Assembly (NCBI GenBank): GCA_964605225.1
Contig: CAZSAY010000004.1
Coordinates: 1-60,658 of the forward strand
Direction: 5' to 3'
Source of the DNA: an uncultured Thermodesulfobacteriota bacterium
GTDB lineage: Bacteria; Desulfobacterota; GWC2-55-46; JADFVP01
Length of the DNA: 60,658 nucleotides
Both the position numbers and the translations under genes were made by a program. Position 1 is the stretch's first letter. Each line of letters opens with the position of its first letter. The notes under the pieces were generated by a model, which saw only the letters and a program-made list of their open reading frames with translations, was not told where the DNA came from and ran no database searches. Below, piece after piece: positions 72 through 12,887 of the stretch.

Positions 72-1136
72 TTATGTAGCCTCTGCCGGAGGCTCGGCGT
101 GTACGCTGGAGGGCTTTTCAAGTTTTCTCGTATCCACTCCCCTCAGTCTTACCAAAAGGGCCTTCAGCGGGTGGTTCACCGTGTCCATGACGGCCGTTGG
201 TTCGTAGCCGCAGTGCACCATGCAGTCGGCGCATTTTGCGTTCCTGTCATATCCGTAGCTATCCCAATCCGTCTTCTCCATAAGTTCTTTGTAGGAGTTT
301 GCGTAGCCTTCGTTGAGGAGGTAACAGGGCATCTGCCAGCCGAATATGTTTCGCGTAGGGTTACCCCACGGCGAACACCTGTAGTCTTCGTTGCCTGCCA
401 GGAAATTGAGAAAAAGACTGCTGTGGTTGAACTTCCATCCCCTCTTCGCCCCCTCTGCCAGTAATTTTCTGAAGATGAGAACGGCGTCTTCGCGTCCAAG
501 AAAGTCTTTTTTTTCTCTGGCGTTGCCGTAGTGAAAGGCCGGTGAGAGCGTCATGCCCTCTACGCCGAGACCTGTTATGAAGTCAAAGAGGGCTATGGCC
601 TCGTCGATGGACTCTCTTCCGTAGATAGTTGTATTGGTGGTTACGCGAAAGCCTTGTTTTTTGGCGAGTCCTATGGCCTCCACGGCGCTATCAAAGACGC
701 CCTCACTGGAGACGAGTTTGTCGTGCCGGTCTTTAAGGCCATCGAGATGAACGCTGAAGGTCAGGTATGGGCTCGGCTCGAATAGCTCCATCTTGCGTTT
801 GAGGAGCAGGGCGTTGGTGCAGAGGTATACGAACTTTTTTAGCCCTACAAGTCCCTTTACGATCTCACCTATCTCAGGATGGATAAGGGGCTCGCCTCCG
901 GGTATGGATACAACCGGCGCGCCGCACTCAAGGGCCGCGTCTATACACTCATCTACGCCGAGCCTTTTTTTAAGTGTCTCGGACGGGTAATCAATCTTGC
1001 CGCATCCCGGGCATGCGAGGTTGCATTGAAAGAGGGGCTCAAGCATGAGGACCAGCGGAAAGCGTTTCTTTCTCTTTAGACACTGCCCTGTTATATAAGC
1101 GCCGATACGTACCTGTTGTATAAGCGGAACACCCAT
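72..1136 (-). CDS. hpnH: Adenosyl-hopene transferase HpnH (radical SAM)
   Basis: N-terminal FPLVLMLEPLFQCNLACPGCGKIDYP (CxxxCxxC); C-terminal KCADCMVHCGYEPTAV typical of HpnH; hopanoid gene context. Confidence 0.93.
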   Translation of the reverse strand: MGVPLIQQVRIGAYITGQCLKRKKRFPLVLMLEPLFQCNLACPGCGKIDYPSETLKKRLGVDECIDAALECGAPVVSIPGGEPLIHPEIGEIVKGLVGLKKFVYLCTNALLLKRKMELFEPSPYLTFSVHLDGLKDRHDKLVSSEGVFDSAVEAIGLAKKQGFRVTTNTTIYGRESIDEAIALFDFITGLGVEGMTLSPAFHYGNAREKKDFLGREDAVLIFRKLLAEGAKRGWKFNHSSLFLNFLAGNEDYRCSPWGNPTRNIFGWQMPCYLLNEGYANSYKELMEKTDWDSYGYDRNAKCADCMVHCGYEPTAVMDTVNHPLKALLVRLRGVDTRKLEKPSSVHAEPPAEAT

Positions 1137-1165
1137 TAATTCTCCTCTATTCCCCTCTCAAGGGT

Positions 1166-2080
1166 TTAAATCGGAAGGCTGAACTTTACGTTCTCATGAG
1201 TTACTTCAATATTTTTTAGCGTTATATCCGCCGCTATTTTGCAGAGGTATTCTATAACCTCCTGTACGAGTATCTCAGGGGCCGAGGCCCCGGCCGTAAT
1301 GGCCACGCACCGGGCGCCTTTAAGCCACTCGTCGGATATGTCTTCGGCGGAGCCTACAAGGTATGAGGGCACGCCGTACCTTGAGCCGAGCTCGCGGAGG
1401 CGGTTCGAGTTGGAGCTGTTTTTGGCGCCTACTACGATAAGGATATCCACGTCTTTTATAACGGCCTTTACGGCGTCCTGCCGGTTCTGCGTGGCGTAGC
1501 AGATATTTTTTTTCCTTGGGCCGCGTATGCCCTTGAATCGAGTCCGCAGGGCCGCCACTATTTCGGCCATATCGTCTACGCTTAGCGTGGTCTGCGTAAC
1601 AAAGGCCAGTTTATCCGGGTCTTTTACCTCAAGGGCCGCCACGTCTTCCGGTGAGGATACAATGTGCATACCTTCCTTTATCTGTCCCATGGTGCCCACT
1701 ACCTCGGGGTGTCCGGCATGTCCTATGAGTATCTGCTCACAGCCCTCCGTGGCGTTACGGCGCGCTTCTCTGTGAACCTTTGTAACAAGGGGACAGGTGG
1801 CGTCGATGACCATGAGATTACGGGACGCGCCCTCTTCCTTAACCTTTCTGGAGACGCCGTGGGCGCTGAAGATAACCACGGCGCCGTCGGGAACCTCGTT
1901 GAGTTCGTCTACGAAGATGACGCCTTTTTTCTTAAGCCCATCGACAACGTGGCGGTTGTGAACTATCTCATGGCGCACGTATATGGGCGTGCCGTACTTC
2001 TCAACGGCAAGCTCAACGGTTCGCACGGCCCGTTCCACACCGGCGCAGAAACCTCTTGGTTTTGCAAGCAGTAGGTCCAT
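1166..2080 (-). CDS. ispH: 4-hydroxy-3-methylbut-2-enyl diphosphate reductase
   Basis: [54 protein letters not shown] motifs; three Fe-S cysteines present. Confidence 0.96.
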
Positions 2081-2100
2081 ATATATTTATTATACCTTAT

Positions 2101-3090
2101 TTAACAGTAATGGTGCCCTCGGAACCACTCCACGGCGTCGCGTAGCGCCTCGGCGGCGGGCCGCGGGCTGTATCCAAGCTTTGCCTTTGCCCTGGCGCTT
2201 GAGAAAAACATATATTTTTTGGCCATCCTTACCCCGTCTTTCGTAAGCATGGGGTTTTGGGCCTTCGTTAGCCTTGCCCACGCTTCGGCTACGTGCGCAA
2301 GGGGCATTACGATACCATGGGGTAGCCGCATCCTTGGCGCCGGCCTTCCCGTTATTTCGGCAAGTTGTTCAAGTATCCCGGCAAGGGTCATGTTATCTCC
2401 GCCAAGGATGTAGCGCTCTCCCACAACCCCCTTTTCCATGGCGAGTATATGTCCCTCGGCCACATCATCAACGTGCACAATATTGAGTCCCGTATCCACA
2501 TATGCTGGCATCTTGCCGGAGACGGCGTTGACTATGATGCGGCCCGTTGGCGTTGGTTTTATGTCGCGCGGTCCTATGGGCGTAGATGGGTTCACGATGA
2601 CGGCCCGAAGACCCTTTTCGGCGATGAGCCGCATAACCGCCTGCTCCGCGAGGAATTTGCTTCGTTTATAGTGGCCTATCATATCGCTTAGCGCCGAGGG
2701 CGTTGTCTCGTCGGCAGGGGTTCTATCGGAATTGAGCCCTATCGTGGCCACGCTACTCGTATATACGATACGGCCCACCCCGGCACTCAGGGCCTCCTCC
2801 ATGATGAACTGCGTCCCACCCTCGTTGGCCTCGTACATGGCCTTGGGGTTCGGGACCCAGAGGCGGTAGTCGGCGGCCACATGAAAGAGGGCCTCACATC
2901 CCTTCAGGGCTTTTTTAAGAGATGCCCTGTCTGTAAGGTCCCCTGTCTGCACCTCCGTGTCAAGGCCGATAATATTTGACCGGTCGCTGCCGGCGCGGAC
3001 AAGGAGACGCACTTCGCGGCCTTTTGCCAGAAGCGCCCGTACAAGGGCCGAGCCGACAAACCCCGTTGCGCCTGTAACAAGGGTACTCAT
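2101..3090 (-). CDS. hpnA: Hopanoid-associated NAD-dependent sugar epimerase/dehydratase HpnA
   Basis: TGATGFVG Rossmann motif, FHVAADYRLW, YKRSK catalytic YxxxK, NPSTPIGPRDIKPTPTG, MPAYVDTGLN. Confidence 0.9.
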   Translation of the reverse strand: MSTLVTGATGFVGSALVRALLAKGREVRLLVRAGSDRSNIIGLDTEVQTGDLTDRASLKKALKGCEALFHVAADYRLWVPNPKAMYEANEGGTQFIMEEALSAGVGRIVYTSSVATIGLNSDRTPADETTPSALSDMIGHYKRSKFLAEQAVMRLIAEKGLRAVIVNPSTPIGPRDIKPTPTGRIIVNAVSGKMPAYVDTGLNIVHVDDVAEGHILAMEKGVVGERYILGGDNMTLAGILEQLAEITGRPAPRMRLPHGIVMPLAHVAEAWARLTKAQNPMLTKDGVRMAKKYMFFSSARAKAKLGYSPRPAAEALRDAVEWFRGHHYC

Positions 3091-4154
3091 TATCTTAAGA
3101 CTTCTCTAAAACCCTTTTTATCTCCCATGGAGGAGCCATGGCCCCTGGGCCCCTGCCCTGCCTTTTTATCTTTTCCCTTAAGACCCGTGAGAAGGGCGAG
3201 GCTCGTCCGCATGGTCTTAAGAGGCTCGCCAAGGGCATGGGATACGAGTCTCGCGCAACCCAGGACGCAACCCGGCTCACAGGGCTTGTGGCGATTATTA
3301 GTACGTATATCACTGGTCGTAAAATCTTCAATGGGCATTGAAAACTCGCTGTTCTGACTGCAGAACTGCACCTTTCCGGCGCCGTTTACATAGAGGAATT
3401 TACTCCCGCCGAGGCACTTCCAGGGGCGTGAATAATCGCCCATGAGGGCCTCTTCGGCGTTACGGCGGTAAAGGTTCATGCCGGCAAAGAGTTTATGTTT
3501 TTTTAGAAGGCTAACGTATCGAGCGCCTTTTATGGCAACACGGCCTCCCGGGCCGTGAAGCAGGGAAAATCCGAAATCAAAAGGGAGCCCCTTCAGAAGG
3601 GCGCGGAAACTTTCATACTCGCCGCAGGTCTCTTTTGTGAGCACGGACTGTACCTTTACCTTGAAGCGGGCCTTTTCGGCGAGCATCTTAAGCCTTGGGA
3701 GAAGGGACTTCAGGGATTTATCGGAGCTCAAGGTGGGGCTTGCAGAGTCAACGCTTATCTGCATCATATCAAGGCCCGCCTCGTTAAGCCCCGCTACAAT
3801 CTCAGTGGTAAGGAGAAAACCGTTGGTTATGAGCGTAACGATGTTGCCACTGCCTCGTAGTCCCTTTATGTAAGAGACAAGGGGGACGATATCTCTGTGC
3901 ATCAGCGGCTCGCCGCCGAGAAGATCGTAGACCATGACGCCAAGGTCATCAAGGCGGTCAATGCGTGCCGTAAGCACAGGGAGAGGCGGAGCGGGCGCGC
4001 CCGTTGTGTATTCGTTACAGTACCCGCAGGAGAGGTTACAGTCCGTAGTGACGACTACCTGCGCGTAAAGGGCCCTTCTGTCATAGAGCCTCTTTAAGCC
4101 GCGCATGATGAAGGCAGGGCCGGGTTTGCTGGATTTTTGTCTTGCTACTCTCAT
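3090..4154 (-). CDS. Radical SAM protein of unknown function with Cys-rich (SPASM/twitch-like) C-terminus
   Basis: CNLSCGYC motif, GGEPL, LITNG; further Cys in CLGG...FCSQ...PCEPGCVLGC; stop abuts the hpnA start; start could be 4106. Confidence 0.85.
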   Translation of the reverse strand: MRVARQKSSKPGPAFIMRGLKRLYDRRALYAQVVVTTDCNLSCGYCNEYTTGAPAPPLPVLTARIDRLDDLGVMVYDLLGGEPLMHRDIVPLVSYIKGLRGSGNIVTLITNGFLLTTEIVAGLNEAGLDMMQISVDSASPTLSSDKSLKSLLPRLKMLAEKARFKVKVQSVLTKETCGEYESFRALLKGLPFDFGFSLLHGPGGRVAIKGARYVSLLKKHKLFAGMNLYRRNAEEALMGDYSRPWKCLGGSKFLYVNGAGKVQFCSQNSEFSMPIEDFTTSDIRTNNRHKPCEPGCVLGCARLVSHALGEPLKTMRTSLALLTGLKGKDKKAGQGPRGHGSSMGDKKGFREVLR

Positions 4155-4347
4155 GGATGTCCTTCTTTAAAAAAAGAGGGGTTTTATATAAAATTCGTAA
4201 GGTTACCTTAAGGTTAAATTTCTCCGTCTCCCTTATCCCGGCAAAGATGAGGTCATAAGAATTCACTTATAAAGTTTAGCACAGGCCTTTTTGGTTCGCA
4301 AATTTCAACTCAAACCTCCGGGGTCTTGAATAGTATGGAAATGCCGG

Positions 4348-5661
4348 TCAGTAGCGCTCGAAGTTGGTGGCATTTCCCGAGGCCATCTTTCTCTGCGAGA
4401 TGTTCATCACCCATGATGTTATAGCCGATAGCGAGGTGGGTAGCGGTAGACGGTGGAGTATGGATGGCCAGGAGTAAAAATCCCTGTACATTTCGCTGAT
4501 GCCCTCTGCAAGCTCATCGGGGGTGAAGTTTTTCGGGTTTACCCTCGCCGAGATTCCGGGCCAGCGGTTGAGGTTATCAGGGTCGAGGATGCGTCCCTCG
4601 GTGAGGTATTTTTTGTACACAGGTGTGCCCTTGTAGGGGCAGAAGGAGTTGAAAAAGGCCACATGCACCTTCTGAGTCTTGAGAAAATCAAGGGTAGTGC
4701 GAAAATCCTCTACGTGGTCCGTATCCCAGCCAAAGATGAGGTTGAAGCTGAAGCTGATATCAAGGTCTCGCAGGGCCATGATTACATCTTTAAGGGTTCC
4801 CGCCTTTGAGGTCTTTTTGTGCATGCCGTCAAGGGTGTCCTGTTTGATGCTCTCGATGCCGAGGTTCACATGGAGGAGTCCGCTTTTTTTCGCGAGGACC
4901 ATGAAGTCTTTCTCAAGGACGCGGTTGGCCGTCCAGAGGGCGCTCCACCGTAATTTCAGGGGGATAAGGGCCTCCATAAGCTTCATGGTGCGGCCGCGGT
5001 TACCGGAAAAGGTGCTGTCGGCGAAGAATATGCGTTTGCTTCCCGTGGCCTTTATCTCGGCGATGACCTCTTCCACGGGACGCATGCGGTATCTGGAGCC
5101 AAGGTAAAAACGTTCGGCGCAGAACTCGCATGAGAAGGGACAGCCGCGGCTTGTCTGAACGGCTACGGTATGAAAGCGCGTGAATGTGCGCGGCTCAAGT
5201 AGGTCTCTACGGGGTAGGGGAAGGTTCAGAAGGTTGTGAAACTCCTTTGCGTGGTAGGAACTCTTAAGTTTTTTAGCGCAGAGGTCCTTGAATATCTCCG
5301 GCAGTACCACCTCTCCCTCGCCAACGGCAACGGCATCGCAATGGGCGGCGGCCTCGTCACCGTAAAAAAAACAGTGAGGCCCGCCGAGTATTACGGTCAC
5401 TCCCTTTGCCCTGAACTTGTCGGCTATTTCATAGGCGCGAAGCGAATTTATGGTCCATACGGTGATGAGGACAAGGTCGGCGGGCCAGTCCATATCAAGG
5501 TCCTGCGTCCTCTCGTCCGTAAGCCTGACCTCGCTACCCTCGGGCATGAGCGCCGCGAGGTAGGCGATGGTCAGGGGCATGAGGTTGAGCTTCTTCGTCT
5601 TGAAGAGTTTCCTGCTGTGCGCGGCGGCGAAATGAGTGGGCTGTATGATGTGTATTTTCAT
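4348..5661 (-). CDS. Cobalamin-binding (class B) radical SAM protein
   Basis: N-terminal B12-binding domain (VILGGPH, GEGE), TSRGCPFSCEFC, FADSTF, GIES, IFGWDTD. Confidence 0.9.
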   Translation of the reverse strand: MKIHIIQPTHFAAAHSRKLFKTKKLNLMPLTIAYLAALMPEGSEVRLTDERTQDLDMDWPADLVLITVWTINSLRAYEIADKFRAKGVTVILGGPHCFFYGDEAAAHCDAVAVGEGEVVLPEIFKDLCAKKLKSSYHAKEFHNLLNLPLPRRDLLEPRTFTRFHTVAVQTSRGCPFSCEFCAERFYLGSRYRMRPVEEVIAEIKATGSKRIFFADSTFSGNRGRTMKLMEALIPLKLRWSALWTANRVLEKDFMVLAKKSGLLHVNLGIESIKQDTLDGMHKKTSKAGTLKDVIMALRDLDISFSFNLIFGWDTDHVEDFRTTLDFLKTQKVHVAFFNSFCPYKGTPVYKKYLTEGRILDPDNLNRWPGISARVNPKNFTPDELAEGISEMYRDFYSWPSILHRLPLPTSLSAITSWVMNISQRKMASGNATNFERY

Positions 5662-5789
5662 AATGAGTTTATCTGAGAGTCTTCCGAATAGAGGGCAGGT
5701 TTTTTATAATAGCGCTTTATTTAAAGGTAGCATCTGCTTTCCCGGCTGTCAAGGAGGTACCCCTAAGGATAGAGAAGGCGGCGCTTTTT

Positions 5790-6836
5790 TTAAGGGTCAG
5801 GTGTTTTTTTATAAATGAGGGCAAGCATTACTCCCGTAAGTATCATGAGGAGCTCTCTACCCCTTCTTATAAGGCTCATGGCAAAGCCTGTCTCGGGGCC
5901 CATGCCCATGAGTACGGCGATGGCCGCTTTGCCTGTCTCCTGCGTACCCATGCCCGCAGGTACGGGAATTATGGCGGCTACGATGATGGTGGCGCACTCG
6001 AAGAGCCCGGCGCCGGTAATGCCGAGATCAACACCATTCGTGCCGATTACATGGGAGATGGCCATCCATTCAAGGGCCGCTGTAAACCACATGCCCATGT
6101 AGCAGGCATAGGCCGCCATGGCCCGTCCCGGGGCCCCTTTTATCTCCTTTGAGGCCGCGACATCAATATGGAGAAAACGGCGAAGCCCCCGTAGCCGTCT
6201 CGGCACGCGGAACCTTACGCGGTAATAGCCGCCAAGGAGCTGACGCCCCACCTGACTCCAGAGCACGATTAGCCATAGAAAGACGGTCATGGCCACCATG
6301 AGGCAGGCCATGGTGATAAAGGTCGCTCGCCATGAGGGGCCGCCTATGCCATGGAGGGCGGCGCTCAGGAAGACAAAGGCCCCAAAGGGTCCAACGGCGG
6401 CAACGTGCAGGAACTTTGCCGCCGCAAGGGCCATGAAGGCGGAGTTTTTGCCCTCTCCCCTGCCTAAGGCTATGAGTTTGTAAGGTTCTCCGCCTATGCC
6501 GCCCGTTGGCATGGCGTAGTTGAGTACCTCGCCTATGTAGCGCGTCCGTGTAAGGCTCAAGATGGTAGTGTTCTGCCAGCCCGCTGAGCCGCGTCTTGTG
6601 CCCAGGAGCCAGAGAGCGAAGGTGCCGAGGCACTGCTGAAGCGCATAGGCCCCCACTACGAAGATAAAGCCCGGCCACCAGCCGCCGGAGAGCTCCTTCC
6701 AGACCTCACCGGGCCCGAGATGCCAGACAAGGTAGATGGCGAGAAGCAGTCCTCCTGCTATGAGAAGGGGCTTTAGAGCGCGGCTTTTTTCCCTGCCCTT
6801 ATCCTTAAGAGTATTACGAGAATCGAGTATATCCAT
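5790..6836 (-). CDS. Lysylphosphatidylglycerol-synthase TM / flippase-like membrane protein (HpnL-like)
   Basis: Multiple hydrophobic segments, GEVLNYAMPTGGIGGEPYK and PVPAGMGTQE...RRGREL motifs of the UPF0104/LPG-synthase TM family; start position uncertain (64-nt overlap with upstream gene). Confidence 0.75.
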   Translation of the reverse strand: MDILDSRNTLKDKGREKSRALKPLLIAGGLLLAIYLVWHLGPGEVWKELSGGWWPGFIFVVGAYALQQCLGTFALWLLGTRRGSAGWQNTTILSLTRTRYIGEVLNYAMPTGGIGGEPYKLIALGRGEGKNSAFMALAAAKFLHVAAVGPFGAFVFLSAALHGIGGPSWRATFITMACLMVAMTVFLWLIVLWSQVGRQLLGGYYRVRFRVPRRLRGLRRFLHIDVAASKEIKGAPGRAMAAYACYMGMWFTAALEWMAISHVIGTNGVDLGITGAGLFECATIIVAAIIPVPAGMGTQETGKAAIAVLMGMGPETGFAMSLIRRGRELLMILTGVMLALIYKKTPDP

Positions 6837-8161
6837 GTACCGATAGTCACTATCCAGAGAAAACCGCCGAGCCAGTCCAGTATGGCAAGGGGAAAGAGGA
6901 GGTAGGAAAAATCACGGCTCGTAAGGGCCTCCACTACCTTTTTAAGGGACCCGTCCGCGGACCCCCGCTCTTTTCTGTACTTATAGGGCCTTAAGAGGGG
7001 AGAGACGGCGATGACGCTGGCCAGGACCCCTAAAACAGCGAATATGGCCAGCGCGTTCCATGGGCCGGGCACGCCGCCGGCCTTCTGACCCATGGCGATG
7101 CCGGAGAATATGGCGATATGCGCGGCGTTGTCAGCAATCATATCATACCAGAAGCCAAGGGGCGTTGCCTTTAATAAAAGCCTGGCGAGCTCGCCGTCAA
7201 CGCCGTCTATGATGGAATGAATCTGAAAGAGCGCGGCCCCGAGAAGCCCCCATGCAGGGGCGTTGCCCCTTGAAAAGGCAAGCCCCGCCAGGAGTCCCAC
7301 GGCGAGGGTAAAGGTAGTGACCATGTTGGGCGTTACACCGAAGCGCCAGATACGGGTGCTGATAAAGAGGCTCACCCTGCGGTTAACGTGCCGGGCCATG
7401 AAACCATCGGCTGGTTTTACAAGCGAGGCGTAGAGTTTTTTTTCGGCCTCACTGATGTCCCCGGCAGTGTCTACATCCTGCCAGTATCCGCCCCTTATGT
7501 TTTGGGCCTTGAGTTTTCTTTTTTCCCCGAGCACGCGCATTATATCCGATATGCCGGGGGCCTGCCCCGCCTTTTGGGCGGCCTTTCTGACCAGCTCCGG
7601 GTTTAGGACGAACATGCCCGTATCAATGGCATCGTACCCGGTGAGGTCTTTTCCTATGGCGGAGATAAACCCGTGCTCTACCTTTACAAGGGTGGCGTCA
7701 TCAAGGTCGCCGTTGAATGTGTTCTTTTCCTCTACCACAAGCCTGGGCACGCCGTCGCTCTTGAATTCATCGATGGTCTCCTCCAATCGTCGGGGGCTGA
7801 AGAGGTGGTCTGACATCAAGAGGGCGAAGGGCTCATGAAGTCCATCAATACCGGCGAGGAGGCTTACTCCGTTTGGTTCAGTGTAACGCCGATTTTCTAT
7901 AAGGGTAAGTTGGCATCCCCCCGGGGTAAGCCCCGGCAGACGGGCGCGCATGACCTCGGCCTCATGTCCGATTACTATGATAAAATGTGTGATACCGGCC
8001 TTTGCCGCCGAGTCCATGACGCGGGATATCAGGGAGACTCCCACAAGGGGCAGGAGGGGCTTGGGCAGGGTTTTGCCGTGCATGCGGGTCCCCATGCCGG
8101 CCGCTACTATAACGGCCGCTCTTACCCCTGTTGAGGATACGTTTTTTTCGCTTCTTTTCAT
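6773..8161 (-). CDS. Bifunctional nucleotidyltransferase / CDP-alcohol phosphotransferase (IPCT/DIPPS-like architecture)
   Basis: N-terminal AAGMGTRM...PKPLL NTP-transferase motif; C-terminal DGVDGELAR-x8-G-x3-D-x3-D CDP-alcohol phosphotransferase signature with TM helices. Confidence 0.88.
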   Translation of the reverse strand: MKRSEKNVSSTGVRAAVIVAAGMGTRMHGKTLPKPLLPLVGVSLISRVMDSAAKAGITHFIIVIGHEAEVMRARLPGLTPGGCQLTLIENRRYTEPNGVSLLAGIDGLHEPFALLMSDHLFSPRRLEETIDEFKSDGVPRLVVEEKNTFNGDLDDATLVKVEHGFISAIGKDLTGYDAIDTGMFVLNPELVRKAAQKAGQAPGISDIMRVLGEKRKLKAQNIRGGYWQDVDTAGDISEAEKKLYASLVKPADGFMARHVNRRVSLFISTRIWRFGVTPNMVTTFTLAVGLLAGLAFSRGNAPAWGLLGAALFQIHSIIDGVDGELARLLLKATPLGFWYDMIADNAAHIAIFSGIAMGQKAGGVPGPWNALAIFAVLGVLASVIAVSPLLRPYKYRKERGSADGSLKKVVEALTSRDFSYLLFPLAILDWLGGFLWIVTIGTWIYSILVILLRIRAGKKAAL

Positions 8162-8434
8162 ATAAAAAGCCCGTTTATTGCAGAGATGGCTTGTATTTCA
8201 TGCCTTGCTGTAGCAATATGTCTTCCTGTAGTATCTCTCTATTAAGGCGATACTCGTTTACGGGTGTTGTTTATTAGAGGCGGTCTGTCTTTTATGTAAA
8301 TTAAGATAATAAGACCTCGGGGCGTTGCCGCGGAAAAGATATCATAGACACTTGTAAAAGACAACCTGAAGAGGCTTTACCATAGGGGGTCTTACTCTAA
8401 GGCCCACAATAACCGGGTAAATGGGAATATTATA

Positions 8435-11125
8435 TTGAAGCTTAAGAGCGAAAAAAGGGGTTTTACGGGAAGGGTGGTCTCGTGGTGGGTGGCCTTTGCA
8501 AGCCGCCACGCCTGGCAGACCGTAATCCTTTGCCTCCTTCTAACCGTCTTTTTAGGCAACTACACCATACATCATATAGGGATAAATACGGACGCCTCGA
8601 AGATGATATCGGAAAAACTCCCGTGGCGGCAGAGGTATCTATCCTACAAAGAAAAATTTCCACAGTTCTTCGGTGAGATAGCTATAGTCATTGATGGCGA
8701 TACGCCGGGGCTTGCCGATAACGCCGCGAAGAGGCTTACAAAGCGCCTTCGAGGCGAGGTCAAGCTATTCAAGAGCGTCTATGAGCCCGGGGGCAATGAT
8801 TTTTTTCGCAGGAACGGTCTACTTTACCTGAGTACCGAAAAGTTGGAAGACCTCTCCGATCACATGGCCGCTGTTCAGCCTTTTCTTGGCTCCCTCATGG
8901 CGGACCAGAGCCTCGGAGGGTTCTTTTCCATGCTTACCACGGCCATGGACGCCGTGGAAAAGGGCGACGTTGACGAGGGGTTTGAGCTCGCGCCCGTGCT
9001 CGGAGGTGTAAGGGACGCGGCCGGGGCCAATGTGGAGAATCGATTTTACCGCCTCTCCTGGCAGGACCTCATGCTTGGAAAAAAGAGCGCGCCATCGGAT
9101 AAAAGAAGGTTCATAGTAGTTCAGCCGAGGCTAAGTTTCTCCGAGCTATTTCAGGGCGAGTCGGCCATGGTGAAGATTCGGGCCCTTGCAGGGGAGTTGT
9201 CCCTCGATAGTGATCACGGAGTGCGAGTGCGCCTCACAGGTTCCGTGGCCCTTGCCAACGAGGAATTTAAGAGCATAAGCCGGGGCGCGGGCCTTGCGAG
9301 CATAGCGGCCCTCATCGCTGTCCTGATAATCCTCTTCGTGGCCCTCCGAAGTCTCACGCTCCTCATCTCATCCTTTATTACCCTTATCTCCGGGATCATC
9401 ATTACCGCGGCCTTCGCCGCCTTTGCCGTGGGTAAGCTCAATATGATATCCATGGCCTTTGCCGTTCTCTATATCGGCCTCGGCATTGATTACGCCATAC
9501 ACCTCTGCCTCCGTTACCGGGAGTTGGTCCATGAGGGTTCTCCTCATGAAGAGGCCATTAAAAAGGCCGCCAGCGACGTGGGGGCCTCTCTGGTTCTCTG
9601 CACCATTACCACGGCGGCGGGCTTTTATTCCTTTATCCCAACGGCTTACTCCGGTGTCTCGGAGCTTGGTCTTATCTCGGGCACGGGTATCTTCATAAGC
9701 CTCGCTGTGAGCCTTACGTTCCTGCCGGCCCTTATATCTCTTCGGCCCCTCCGCGTACCTGCCGCGGTAGAAGTGGCGAAGCCGCTTACAAAGACCCCTT
9801 CTGCCGGTTTTATGGCATGGGCCCGGCAGAGGAGATTTCCTGTCATGGTTATCCTCGCCCTTGTCGGGGCCGGAGGCACGGCGCTCCTTGGTTGGGTCTC
9901 TTTTGACGGTAATCCCATGAATCTGCGTGATGCCTCAATGGAGTCCGTGGCCACCTTTAACGACCTTATGAAAGAGCCCGGCTCATCGCCCCTTACCATA
10001 GTGGCCGTTAAGGAAAAGGATACCGTGAAAGAGGCGGCACGAAAGCTGAAGGCCCTTGCCCTTGTGGACAAGGCCGTGCAGATCGAAGACTTCATACCGT
10101 CCGGGCAGGACGAAAAACTCGATATCATAGAGGAGCTATCCATGCTCATGGGCCCGGAGCTTGATACGCCCGGAGGCGGAACTCCCGGGCAGGGCGCTAA
10201 TAAGGACGGCGAAAGCAGGCTTAATGCCATTAAGGGGCTTACCGCCGCTCTTGCGCGGTACGGGGCAGATGAAGGGGTAAGTGCCGGGGAAAGGAGAGCC
10301 GCAAGGGAGGCGCGTATCGCACTTGGCAGACTTGAGGTAAAGCTTGGGAAGATGGATGGCGCGGCCATGAGACTTAGCCTGGATGAGTTTGAAAAAAGCC
10401 TTCTGGCCTCTCTACCCGACAGGCTAAAGGTTCTGCAGGCTTCTCTTACCGCCGGCCCCGTGGCCTTCAAGGACCTACCCGCCGAGCTTGTAAACCGCTG
10501 GGTGGGAAAGGACGGAGAGAGGCTTATAAAGGTCTTTCCTAAAAAAAATATCTCAGACCTCAATGACCTTACTGATTTTGTGAGGGCCGTTAGCGGTGCC
10601 CTGCCATCTGCAACGGGGCTCCCCGTTGTAATAGTGGAGTCAGGCCACACCGTTGTAAAGGCCTTCAGGCAGGCCTTTATCTATGCCCTTATATTTATCA
10701 TCATCATACTGCTCGTCCTCCTTAGAAATGTAAAAGACACGGCCCTTGTGCTCCTTCCGCTTCTCTATGCCGGTATCCTCACCGGGGCCGCCACTGTGAT
10801 ACTGCAGATACCCTTTAACTTCGCCAATATCATCGCCCTGCCGCTCTTTCTTGGCATAGGCGTTGATAACGGCATACACGTTGTCCATCGTGCGCGCTCC
10901 GCTTCTTCTACCCTTACGGACGGGCTCCTCGGCTCTTCTACCTCAAAGGCCGTATTCTACAGCGCCCTTACAACGGTTATAAGCTTCGGGGGGCTGGCCT
11001 TTTCAAGGCACAGGGGCATGGCGAGCATGGGTCATCTTCTTATCATAGGGATTGTTTTGACGGTTATCTCCACCCTTTTTGTCCTGCCCCTGCTCCTTCC
11101 GGGAGGTGAAGATAAAGGCCATTAA
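8435..11125 (+). CDS. hpnN: Hopanoid transporter HpnN (MMPL/RND family)
   Basis: 896 aa, two MMPL repeats, GLGIDYAIH and GIGVDNGIH motifs, FFRRNGLLYL, divergent from the hopanoid operon. Confidence 0.9.
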   Translation: MKLKSEKRGFTGRVVSWWVAFASRHAWQTVILCLLLTVFLGNYTIHHIGINTDASKMISEKLPWRQRYLSYKEKFPQFFGEIAIVIDGDTPGLADNAAKRLTKRLRGEVKLFKSVYEPGGNDFFRRNGLLYLSTEKLEDLSDHMAAVQPFLGSLMADQSLGGFFSMLTTAMDAVEKGDVDEGFELAPVLGGVRDAAGANVENRFYRLSWQDLMLGKKSAPSDKRRFIVVQPRLSFSELFQGESAMVKIRALAGELSLDSDHGVRVRLTGSVALANEEFKSISRGAGLASIAALIAVLIILFVALRSLTLLISSFITLISGIIITAAFAAFAVGKLNMISMAFAVLYIGLGIDYAIHLCLRYRELVHEGSPHEEAIKKAASDVGASLVLCTITTAAGFYSFIPTAYSGVSELGLISGTGIFISLAVSLTFLPALISLRPLRVPAAVEVAKPLTKTPSAGFMAWARQRRFPVMVILALVGAGGTALLGWVSFDGNPMNLRDASMESVATFNDLMKEPGSSPLTIVAVKEKDTVKEAARKLKALALVDKAVQIEDFIPSGQDEKLDIIEELSMLMGPELDTPGGGTPGQGANKDGESRLNAIKGLTAALARYGADEGVSAGERRAAREARIALGRLEVKLGKMDGAAMRLSLDEFEKSLLASLPDRLKVLQASLTAGPVAFKDLPAELVNRWVGKDGERLIKVFPKKNISDLNDLTDFVRAVSGALPSATGLPVVIVESGHTVVKAFRQAFIYALIFIIIILLVLLRNVKDTALVLLPLLYAGILTGAATVILQIPFNFANIIALPLFLGIGVDNGIHVVHRARSASSTLTDGLLGSSTSKAVFYSALTTVISFGGLAFSRHRGMASMGHLLIIGIVLTVISTLFVLPLLLPGGEDKGH

Positions 11126-11242: not shown

Positions 11243-11878
11243 CTATTGCTTGTCGTAGGCGGCGATCTTCTTATCGAGTTTTTTGATAAGACTGGCGAAA
11301 CTCTTTTTTTTCAGTATGTAGGTGTACTGGGCGCGTTTAAGAGAGAGGTCGCTTACGCCGTTGGCTATGACGTTTATGGCGCGCCACTGGCCCGTTTTTT
11401 TTGATAGCACATAGTCGAGGTGGATGATTTCGCCATCGGACTTTAGAAGCTCCGTTCGCACAAGGAGACGCCCCCTTCTAAGGGGTTTACTTGAAGTTAC
11501 ACTTAACTTCTCTCCCGAATAACCATCAAAGCGCGCCGCGTATGTGGAGATACTGAGCACCCTAAACCTCTTTATGAGTTTGGCGCGTTGCTCATCGGTA
11601 AAGGTCTTCCATATCCTGCCCACGGAATAACGCGTAATGAGGGCAAAGTCATAGGTGCCCTCTACTACGGGTTTAAGCCGGGCATAGCGCCCGCTGTAGC
11701 CGAGCGTTTCAGCGTCCTTCATGACTGAGATAAGGGTCTTGTTAAGGTTTTCTATGAGGCGTTCGCCCTTGTTCATGCTCTCGGCGCGGACCGCTGAGAT
11801 AGAGCAAAGAGAAGTAATGAGCAATGCCAGGCCCAGAACCTTGAAATGCTTCAGCGCCTTGCTTATATACATATCCAT
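11243..11878 (-). CDS. hpnM: Hopanoid-associated MlaC/Ttg2D-family periplasmic lipid carrier HpnM
   Basis: Signal peptide, RYARLKPVV..YDF, STYAARFDGYSGE, WRAINVIANGVSDLSLKRAQY. Confidence 0.8.
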   Translation of the reverse strand: MDMYISKALKHFKVLGLALLITSLCSISAVRAESMNKGERLIENLNKTLISVMKDAETLGYSGRYARLKPVVEGTYDFALITRYSVGRIWKTFTDEQRAKLIKRFRVLSISTYAARFDGYSGEKLSVTSSKPLRRGRLLVRTELLKSDGEIIHLDYVLSKKTGQWRAINVIANGVSDLSLKRAQYTYILKKKSFASLIKKLDKKIAAYDKQ

Positions 11879-12266: not shown

Positions 12267-12887
12267 TTGAAGAAGATTTTAGTCGCGGTAATGGCACTGT
12301 TCTTTCTGACCATTTTATACACTCCCTCAGATGCCCGGACAGGCCCTGTCACGGAGCGTATAAAGACCACCATTGATAGCGCCCTTGGCGTCCTCAGAGA
12401 CCCGGCCTTGAAAGGCAAGGCCCATAGAGCGGAGCGGCGTGTCCGCATACGAGCCGCTATTGAAGACACCATAGATTTTAGAGAGATGAGCCGCCGGTCC
12501 CTTGGCCTCAACTGGCGAAAGAGGACCGCCGCCGAGAGAAAAGAGTTCACCTCACTTTTCAGCGACCTTCTTGAAAATTCATACATAAGCAAGATTGAGC
12601 AACAGACCGATGAGAAGGTCATTTATCTTGAGGAGAGGATAAATAAGAAGCACACAAGGGCCCTTGTGAAGACAAAGGTCGTTACGAGTCAGAAGACGGA
12701 GATCCCCATATTTTACAGGATGATGATGAAGGATGGCAGGTGGGTGGCCTATGATATCGTTATCGAGGGCGTATCCCTTGTGAGTAACTACCGTACGCAG
12801 TTCGGTAAAATAATCAAGAGGTCTTCATATGAGGACCTTGTGGATAATCTCAGGAAAAAGGTGGAAAAGATAAAATCCGCTTCCTGA
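12267..12887 (+). CDS. MlaC/Ttg2D-family lipid-binding periplasmic protein
   Basis: Signal peptide, IDFREMSRRSLG..W, YDIVIEGVSLVSNYRTQF. Confidence 0.88.
   Translation: MKKILVAVMALFFLTILYTPSDARTGPVTERIKTTIDSALGVLRDPALKGKAHRAERRVRIRAAIEDTIDFREMSRRSLGLNWRKRTAAERKEFTSLFSDLLENSYISKIEQQTDEKVIYLEERINKKHTRALVKTKVVTSQKTEIPIFYRMMMKDGRWVAYDIVIEGVSLVSNYRTQFGKIIKRSSYEDLVDNLRKKVEKIKSAS

Follow-up and report, generated by a model that had tools for sequence, protein, structure and literature searches.

The hopanoid gene run and its island

Close to the left end of contig CAZSAY010000004.1 (assembly GCA_964605225.1), from an uncultured Thermodesulfobacteriota bacterium, seven open reading frames (ORFs) on the minus strand form a run that closes with hpnH and diverges from hpnN. 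The contig was analysed as a stretch of 60,658 nucleotides (positions 1 to 60,658, hereafter the window), and the host genome is a metagenome-assembled genome (MAG) of 2.13 Mb, 87% complete. A sequence-only reading of the window had described this minus-strand run with its divergent hpnN and had proposed that the four genes farthest from hpnH, here genes 1 to 4, build an undescribed bacteriohopanepolyol (BHP) head group or a co-regulated membrane lipid. The coordinates bear out the run, and hpnH, ispH, hpnA and hpnN all score over the curated cut-offs of their families. It is confirmed as a real hopanoid gene run, with all seven ORFs and the divergent hpnN at the following positions:

72..1136, minus strand: hpnH, adenosylhopane synthase, radical S-adenosylmethionine (SAM) domain and DUF3463 (TIGR03470, 509 bits, cut-off 225; PF11946, 189 bits)
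1166..2080, minus strand: ispH (lytB), last step of the methylerythritol phosphate (MEP) isoprenoid pathway (NF002188, 475 bits, cut-off 420)
2101..3090, minus strand: hpnA, hopanoid-associated short-chain dehydrogenase/reductase (SDR; "sugar epimerase") (TIGR03466, 514.5 bits, cut-off 368)
3090..4154, minus strand: gene 4, radical SAM enzyme (PF04055)
4348..5661, minus strand: gene 3, B12-binding-type N-terminal domain and radical SAM domain
5790..6836, minus strand: gene 2, polytopic membrane protein of the MprF-TM/AglD/HpnL superfamily ("flippase-like"; PF03706, 78 bits)
6773..8161, minus strand: gene 1, fusion of NTP_transferase and CDP-OH_P_transf domains, top family IPCT/DIPPS
8162..8434: divergent intergenic region of 273 bp between gene 1 and hpnN, presumably with both promoters
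8435..11125, plus strand: hpnN, hopanoid transporter of the resistance-nodulation-division (RND)/MMPL type (TIGR03480, 981 bits, cut-off 752)
11243..11878, minus strand: hpnM, periplasmic lipid carrier of the MlaC fold (TIGR03481, 211.5 bits, cut-off 160)
12267..12887, plus strand: second MlaC/HpnM-like carrier (TIGR03481, 89.7 bits, under the cut-off)

None of genes 1 to 4 matches a named hopanoid family over its curated cut-off, and hpnN does not reach that of a stricter model (NF052374, 737 bits against 1100). The genes are closely spaced. The stop codon of gene 4 overlaps the start of hpnA by 1 nt, a coupling that recurs in similar form at locus L089 (overlap of 4 nt), and genes 1 and 2 share 64 nt, provided that gene 2 begins at its first ATG; the remaining gaps measure 20 to 193 nt. 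A promoter and terminator scan found no terminator-like sites on the minus strand in the intergenic gaps of the run, and the sole promoter-like match near gene 1 (8134-8106, minus strand) falls within the start of that gene, so that its promoter was not located.

The gene order is kept in five relatives (L003, L004, L005, G329 and G002), and the comparison extends the run beyond the window, whose left end (1-70) is a contig break. In G329, which is of the same genus, and in G003 and G002 the whole island is contiguous. Its order there is hpnM, hpnM and hpnN; then genes 1-2-3-4, hpnA, ispH, hpnH and a gene for an unknown 180-residue protein; then hpnG and shc; then the gene for inositol-3-phosphate synthase (MIPS), divergent from shc; and finally mlaC, mlaA, mlaD and mlaF. 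Another contig of the genome under study, C64, carries shc (776 bits, cut-off 431), then an HpnG-like gene (152 bits, slightly under the cut-off of 187), and, divergent from shc, a MIPS gene (E = 7e-139) adjoining mlaC/A/D/F-like genes. C64 can be taken as the continuation of the window's left end, because the same genes directly follow hpnH on one contig in G329, G003 and G002. MIPS belongs to the same island, which spans about 20 kb. The sequence-only reading had recognised no HpnG, HpnI, HpnK, HpnJ or HpnO in the window. In the genome as a whole, HpnI, HpnK and HpnJ are absent over cut-off; as a correction to that reading, the HpnG-like gene and shc are present, on C64.

Two further genes of C64 (locus L002) are conserved in relatives. 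One, at 1496-3160, encodes an MlaA-like lipoprotein of 554 residues in which the MlaA domain covers only residues 353-551, behind a long N-terminal extension; it is conserved in G003 and G002. The other, at 8703-9245 (2028-2567 in L095), is the 180-residue ORF between hpnH and hpnG, which shows no NCBIfam match and is 77-88% identical in three relatives.

Gene 1 and its clade

Gene 1 combines a nucleotidyltransferase domain (PF12804/PF00483, residues 16-149) with a cytidine diphosphate (CDP)-alcohol phosphotransferase domain (PF01066, residues 277-383), and it aligns over its full length with the IPCT/DIPPS of A. fulgidus (4mnd; E = 1e-43, 152 bits). It shares with the IPCT/DIPPS enzymes of hyperthermophiles (A. 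fulgidus AF0263, 4MND; NF041135) the fusion of a cytidylyltransferase to a six-helix CDP-alcohol phosphotransferase, the full catalytic motif and a juxtamembrane N-R-x-x-S, which is conserved in gene 1. The motif, D-x2-D-G-x2-A-R-x8-G-x3-D-x3-D, is complete, and its residues (D319, D322, G323, A326, R327, G336, D340 and D344) are invariant among 18 aligned orthologues. By homology, gene 1 should be a fusion of CTP:inositol-1-phosphate cytidylyltransferase and CDP-inositol phosphotransferase that makes CDP-inositol and transfers inositol phosphate. Inositol as the substrate is suggested both by this homology and by the linkage to MIPS, which lies within the gene 1 cluster in L046, L087, L089 and L009 as well.

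An ordinary IPCT/DIPPS would make soluble di-myo-inositol phosphate, and the place of gene 1 in the operon would then be incidental. The top family and structure matches, which are IPCT/DIPPS, and the presence of MIPS agree with such a role; several other observations make it very improbable. Gene 1 scores 227 bits against NF041135, far under the cut-off of 580, which is weak evidence alone as the model is specific to Thermococcales. The homologues of gene 1 fall into two blocks, with about 60 clusters at 47-81% identity, then a gap, and the rest, canonical IPCT/DIPPS among them, at no more than 41%. A tree of 83 homologues places gene 1 in its own clade of 16 rows (SH-aLRT 100), on a long stem of 1.31 substitutions per site, and all 10 hpn-adjacent loci in the tree lie inside this clade, that is, 10 of its 16 loci. 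After the fourth catalytic Asp, all 16 clade members read D-N-x-x-H in place of the D-R-Y-x-D found at the same site in Thermococcus and in MIPS-adjacent bacterial enzymes; the Arg and Asp of DIPPS are replaced by Asn and His, which fits an acceptor other than inositol phosphate. Unlike the hyperthermophile enzymes, gene 1 is surrounded by genes for hopanoids and lipid transport, and it consistently occurs together with a flippase-like membrane protein and with lipid carriers. Additionally, some genomes that carry the clade appear, from their record names (MFD03804, for instance), to derive from soil or sediment and not from hot sources. The context of gene 1, together with the features of the clade, points to a lipid and not a soluble acceptor.

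The clade occurs in Thermodesulfobacteriota, Planctomycetota and Myxococcota, and its hpn-adjacent loci were found in the first two of these phyla. The loci are of several types. Those arranged as in the window are L003, L004, L005, L178 and L089, though gene 4 is missing from L178 and gene 3 from L089. In a second type (L085, L086 and L088), hpnA, a DUF116 gene, hpnH, a different radical SAM gene, hpnN, OEP, mlaC and hpnG face gene 1, which gene 3 joins in L085 and L088; a near-identical gene 1-gene 3 pair is found in L006, from a Desulfobacteraceae MAG. In the Planctomycetota type (L046), hpnH and shc face hpnM, hpnN, mlaA, an LPG_TM gene, gene 1, a lipoprotein gene and MIPS, and L087, a JGI contig, has the same layout. 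In L007, L083 and L084, an LPG_TM gene and gene 1 stand alone. A PF03706 gene adjoins gene 1 in 10 of the 16 clade loci. Gene 1 is the fixed member of these loci, gene 2 is often present, and genes 3 and 4 are optional. The notion of the four genes as one module is not borne out, as related loci differ in whether they have genes 3 and 4.

Some genes of these loci were recorded in passing. The DUF116 protein of L085, L086 and L088 is inserted between hpnA and hpnH (7378-8319 in L085). The second radical SAM gene of L085 (5378-6346) and L088, placed between hpnH and hpnN, encodes 322 residues that are 23% and 32% identical to gene 4. Besides a signal peptide with an LGCCS lipobox, the predicted lipoprotein encoded between gene 1 and MIPS in loci of the Planctomycetota type (L046, 11293-12312; L087, 10526-11329; L009, 2472-3332) carries a linker rich in Pro and Ala, and its conserved C-terminal domain, about 150 residues long, matches nothing in Pfam or NCBIfam. 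It has no homologue in the genome that carries the window, and it may be a lipid-binding partner.

Genes 2 to 4 as possible partners of gene 1

Gene 2 does not reach the cut-off of the HpnL family (TIGR03476, 51.8 bits against 195.65) and belongs only to the wider PF03706 superfamily.

Gene 3 was compared with the B12-dependent radical SAM enzymes of hopanoid biosynthesis and rejected as each of them. It scores 86.5 bits as HpnJ (TIGR03471, cut-off 577.6) and 62.6 bits as HpnR (TIGR04367, cut-off 650); as HpnP, it lacks the C-terminal DUF4070 domain (PF13282), an indirect argument that relies on a domain criterion rather than on an HpnP-specific model. Its AlphaFold2 model (mean predicted local distance difference test score, pLDDT, 91) finds as top fold in the Protein Data Bank (PDB) AprD4 (6fd2), on which it superposes over its full length with template modelling (TM) scores of 0.76/0.73, followed by cobalamin-dependent methylases at 0.61-0.71. 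AprD4 is the radical SAM 1,2-diol dehydratase of apramycin biosynthesis and acts on an aminocyclitol glycoside. The AprD4 family cut-off is not reached by gene 3 (NF033070, 64 bits against 500). The gene 3 family is large (2088 matches). On these comparisons, gene 3 is an optional accessory that is neither HpnJ nor HpnR.

The same genome holds full-length paralogues of gene 3 on contigs C26 (13051-14334, 33% identity) and C103 (3076-4566, 30%), neither of which reaches the cut-offs of HpnJ, HpnR or BchE. Among the B12-binding radical SAM paralogues on C26, C103, C102 and C1, none is HpnJ or HpnR; the four scanned were full length, and a 239-residue fragment on C77 was outside the scan.

Gene 4 carries the motif CNLSCGYC and five further cysteines (C247, C265, C292, C296 and C300) that are invariant in an alignment of 24 sequences; these extra cysteines suggest at least one auxiliary Fe-S cluster. 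Its sequence-model matches are MoaA-like only and cover the N-terminal half. The nearest PDB folds to its AlphaFold2 model (pLDDT 76) are BlsE, then SkfB and CteB (5why), then viperin and MoaA, all at TM scores of about 0.5. The substrates of BlsE, viperin and MoaA are nucleoside- or nucleotide-linked, and SkfB and CteB are peptide maturases. A fold like that of the first three makes CDP-inositol a candidate substrate of gene 4, which is a lead and not a result. For both radical SAM genes, identity to the enzymes of known function is only 14-20% and all curated cut-offs are missed, and for gene 4 SkfB and CteB rank as high as BlsE, viperin and MoaA. From the modelled folds alone, no substrate or reaction can be assigned to either radical SAM gene.

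The gene 4 family (892 matches) is highly conserved, at 55-83% identity. Its members adjoin stand-alone CDP-alcohol transferases of the inositol type (405-415 residues), HpnL-like proteins (127 bits) and HpnN-like RND pumps (612 bits), with OEP or Omp85 genes, or HAD, nucleotidyltransferase, aminotransferase and Gfo/Idh/MocA genes, as other neighbours. In a sample of 300 genomes of the window's phylum, gene 4 was found only in the window's own genus. Gene 4 is an optional accessory of the module that occurs mostly in cyclitol head-group cassettes.

One cassette that includes a gene 3 orthologue lies in L094 (4967-19005; GCA_002298995.1). Its eleven genes encode, in order, a radical SAM enzyme, a sulfotransferase, a CDP-alcohol transferase (490 residues), an LPG_TM protein, the gene 3 orthologue, a HAD protein, a nucleotidyltransferase, an unknown protein, a class-III aminotransferase, a Gfo/Idh/MocA protein and an MMPL protein. 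The cassette resembles a pathway to a cyclitol-phosphate lipid head group that would be aminated and perhaps sulfated. The radical SAM gene at its head is an orthologue (41% identity) of the 322-residue radical SAM gene of L085 and L088.

The optional nature of genes 3 and 4 raises the question of whether a single pathway is encoded at all. Genes 1 and 2 could make an inositol lipid while gene 3, and perhaps gene 4, act on the polyol side chain or the rings of hopanoids, for instance by an AprD4-type deoxygenation with the SDR HpnA or by C-methylation; such a division could be combined with either a hopanoid or a glycerolipid acceptor of gene 1. Among 18 loci from GTDB species-representative genomes, gene 3 stands alone in 14, and all but one of these genomes carry shc or hpnH. 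Gene 1 occurs without gene 3 (L089) and without gene 4 (L178, L085), the top fold match of gene 3 is a diol dehydratase of a polyol, and gene 4 is translationally coupled to hpnA. Against this stand the loci L006, L085, L088, L094 and L182, in which gene 3 comes immediately after gene 1 or the gene of a CDP-alcohol transferase, and the orthologues of gene 4, which travel with nucleotidyltransferase and CDP-alcohol transferase genes and not with hpn genes. We regard a split of this kind as rather unlikely.

The putative acceptor of inositol phosphate and the link with hopanoids

At the level of whole genomes, genes 1 and 3 co-occur with hopanoid genes. Seven of the eight genomes with the gene 1 clade carry shc (six over the cut-off, one cut by a contig end), the sole exception being a Myxococcota MAG of 3.4 Mb, compared with 4 of the 41 genomes that carry distant gene 1 homologues (over the cut-off). 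A phylum sample of 401 genomes, drawn evenly, contains shc in 70 and hpnH in 71 genomes, a background of about 18%. In this sample shc accompanies the gene 1 clade in 3/3 genomes (Fisher p = 0.005), stand-alone relatives of the gene 1 transferase half in 11/11 (p = 2e-9), and the gene 3 family in 26/28 (p = 6e-20), or 27/28 counting hpnH. It is present in 44 of the 373 genomes without gene 3, and among those with distant IPCT/DIPPS-like genes in 7 of 33, which is not significant. A subgroup of the gene 3 family at about 40% identity is likewise almost confined to shc-positive genomes of the sample. Genes 1 and 3 are therefore not genes found mainly outside hopanoid producers; both co-occur with shc and hpnH. 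The genomes with shc and those with hpnH nearly coincide in the phylum, and the counts cannot separate a need for extended hopanoids from one for C30 hopanoids only.

No HpnI (TIGR03472), HpnJ or HpnK was detected over cut-off in any of the ten genomes that carry the gene 1 clade, a 100% complete genome of the same genus included (the HpnI search had no positive control), so that no known route to composite hopanoids is present in these carriers; HpnB (TIGR03469) is also absent over cut-off. The known route, hpnI-hpnK-hpnJ(-hpnL) in Burkholderia, Rhodopseudomonas and Methylobacterium, leads to bacteriohopanetetrol (BHT) glucosamine and BHT cyclitol ether. It resembles the run in that a head-group transferase, an MprF/HpnL-type membrane protein and a B12-binding-type radical SAM enzyme stand beside hpnH and hpnA. 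It differs in that the proteins are not orthologous and that the link here would be a CDP-alcohol-derived phosphodiester instead of a glycoside derived from a uridine diphosphate (UDP) sugar.

Taken together, the island would make extended hopanoids and carry a head-group route of the Kennedy type for inositol. The MIPS encoded divergently from shc on the continuing contig would provide inositol phosphate, the N-terminal half of gene 1 would convert it to CDP-inositol, and the six-helix C-terminal half would pass the inositol phosphate on to an alcohol embedded in the membrane, at its hydroxyl. The MprF/HpnL-like gene 2 would then handle the charged lipid, probably by flipping it, and HpnN, HpnM and the Mla-like proteins would move it outward. 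Genes 3 and 4 may be optional enzymes that tailor the cyclitol or polyol by radical chemistry, gene 3 as an AprD4-like diol dehydratase or a methylase and gene 4, by its BlsE/viperin/MoaA-like fold, perhaps on a cytidine-linked intermediate. Of all this, the identities of the genes, the separate clade with its active-site signature, the synteny and the co-occurrence with hopanoid genes are observed; inositol as the substrate, a lipid acceptor and the hopanoid as that lipid are inferred, and each chemical role of genes 2 to 4 is a prediction. That a membrane lipid with an inositol phosphate head group is made is probable.

The choice of acceptor is more tentative. Chemically, the -CHOH-CHOH-CH2OH terminus of the BHT side chain is similar to a glycerolipid's free end, and the terminal glycerol-like triol of a BHT-type side chain ranks first among single acceptors, which would give BHT-35-phospho-inositol. 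We hold a BHT-type hopanoid polyol as the acceptor for somewhat less than evenly likely. The wider proposal, that the gene 1 clade consists of CDP-inositol:bacteriohopanepolyol phosphotransferases whose product is BHT-35-phospho-inositol (calculated [M+H]+ 789.491), perhaps remodelled by both radical SAM enzymes, is put forward with slightly more reserve.

The same chemistry could act on diacyl- or dialkylglycerol. Gene 1 would then be a BEPIS-like or Kennedy-type phosphatidylinositol synthase, and inositol phospholipids and hopanoids would be co-regulated and share export to the outer membrane by HpnN, HpnM and Mla-type proteins. We consider this only slightly less likely than the hopanoid acceptor. 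It leaves unexplained the near-confinement to genomes with shc or hpnH (7/8 for the clade, 11/11 for the stand-alone relatives and 27/28 for gene 3, against the background of about 18%). It also leaves unexplained a link of gene 1 with hpnH and hpnA that survives rearrangement across phyla, as gene 1 neighbours hpnA-ispH-hpnH here, lies in the order hpnM-hpnN-mlaA-LPG_TM-gene 1-MIPS in Planctomycetota, and is faced by hpnA-DUF116-hpnH in L085, L086 and L088 (together with gene 3 in L085 and L088).

A number of points weigh against the hopanoid acceptor, most of them in favour of the glycerolipid. The co-occurrence counts are not corrected for phylogeny. To our knowledge, no phosphate-linked hopanoid has been reported, and the only biochemically shown lipid use of CDP-inositol is that of BEPIS, with dialkylether glycerol as the acceptor. 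BEPIS of Rhodothermus marinus is reportedly a dialkylether glycerophosphoinositol synthase with CDP-inositol as the head-group donor, as described by Jorge, Borges and Santos in 2015. Set beside gene 1 by description only, it shares the proposed use of CDP-inositol as a lipid head-group donor and differs in its ether glycerolipid acceptor; we know of no link between BEPIS and hopanoid genes. Within the gene 1 clade, L007, L083 and L084 have no hpn neighbours. Among 35 metagenome loci of gene 4 orthologues, many on short contigs, no hpn gene was found nearby. Related cassettes with orthologues of gene 3 or gene 4 have an HpnN-like RND pump, OEP or Omp85 of their own, with no hpn biosynthesis genes within 10 kb, and the link with hopanoid genes could therefore arise through a shared exporter.

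Precedent is also found in Bacteroides vulgatus and Prevotella, for which Heaver et al. 2022 (PMC9246714) proposed a putative "alternative" inositol-lipid cluster with CDP-inositol as the predicted donor to diacylglycerol, and cited CDP-inositol as the donor for dialkylether glycerophosphoinositol lipids in hyperthermophiles. That cluster resembles the island in its MIPS, NTP transferase and CDP-alcohol phosphatidyltransferase genes and in its predicted Kennedy-type logic. It differs in that its genes are unfused, include a HAD hydrolase and are accompanied by neither radical SAM nor hopanoid genes, and its function is predicted too. An LPG-synthase-like gene adjoins both Bacteroidetes inositol-lipid clusters (PMC9246714), and gene 2 need not be hopanoid-specific for this reason. 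The early proposal of a BHP head group or a co-regulated membrane lipid thus stands as far as a polar head-group module for inositol phosphate is concerned, and falls as far as one indivisible unit was meant; between hopanoid and glycerolipid, sequence does not decide.

A literature search found no paper linking hopanoids with inositol or CDP-alcohol transferases. The hopanoid sections of a 2026 review of lipid radical SAM enzymes treat only HpnH, HpnJ, HpnP and HpnR, and a preprint on shc microsynteny, which makes no mention of inositol, lists hpnL, hpnM, hpnS and hpnT as candidates without assigning HpnL.

Molecular fossils derived from hopanoids are abundant, and hopanoids themselves count among the major membrane lipids, yet few routes to their head groups are known, and HpnL-type proteins and HpnA are still without an assigned function. 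If the hopanoid acceptor is correct, BHT-phospho-inositol would be the first phosphodiester-linked "hopanoid phospholipid", a lipid class not described before. Acetylation-based BHP analyses could miss a phosphate-linked hopanoid. If the acceptor is a glycerolipid, hopanoid producers would combine the hopanoids of their outer membrane with a dedicated inositol phospholipid, a bacterial counterpart of the pairing of sterols with inositol sphingolipids. Widespread uncharacterised cassettes, in which a radical SAM gene is joined by genes for a CDP-alcohol transferase and a flippase-like protein, would gain a first functional handle from either outcome. With its ties to hopanoid islands, the CDP-inositol transferase clade makes a concrete and cheaply testable proposal, with three to four genes and one predicted mass.

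A second IPCT-like nucleotidyltransferase of the genome, which scores 103 bits against NF041135, is encoded on contig C3 (10384-11631); a transmembrane segment and a C-terminal domain of unknown type are fused to it. It seems unrelated to the island: by eye and from sequence alone, its neighbours resemble an ABC transporter, a TagB/F-like transferase and an outer-membrane protein.

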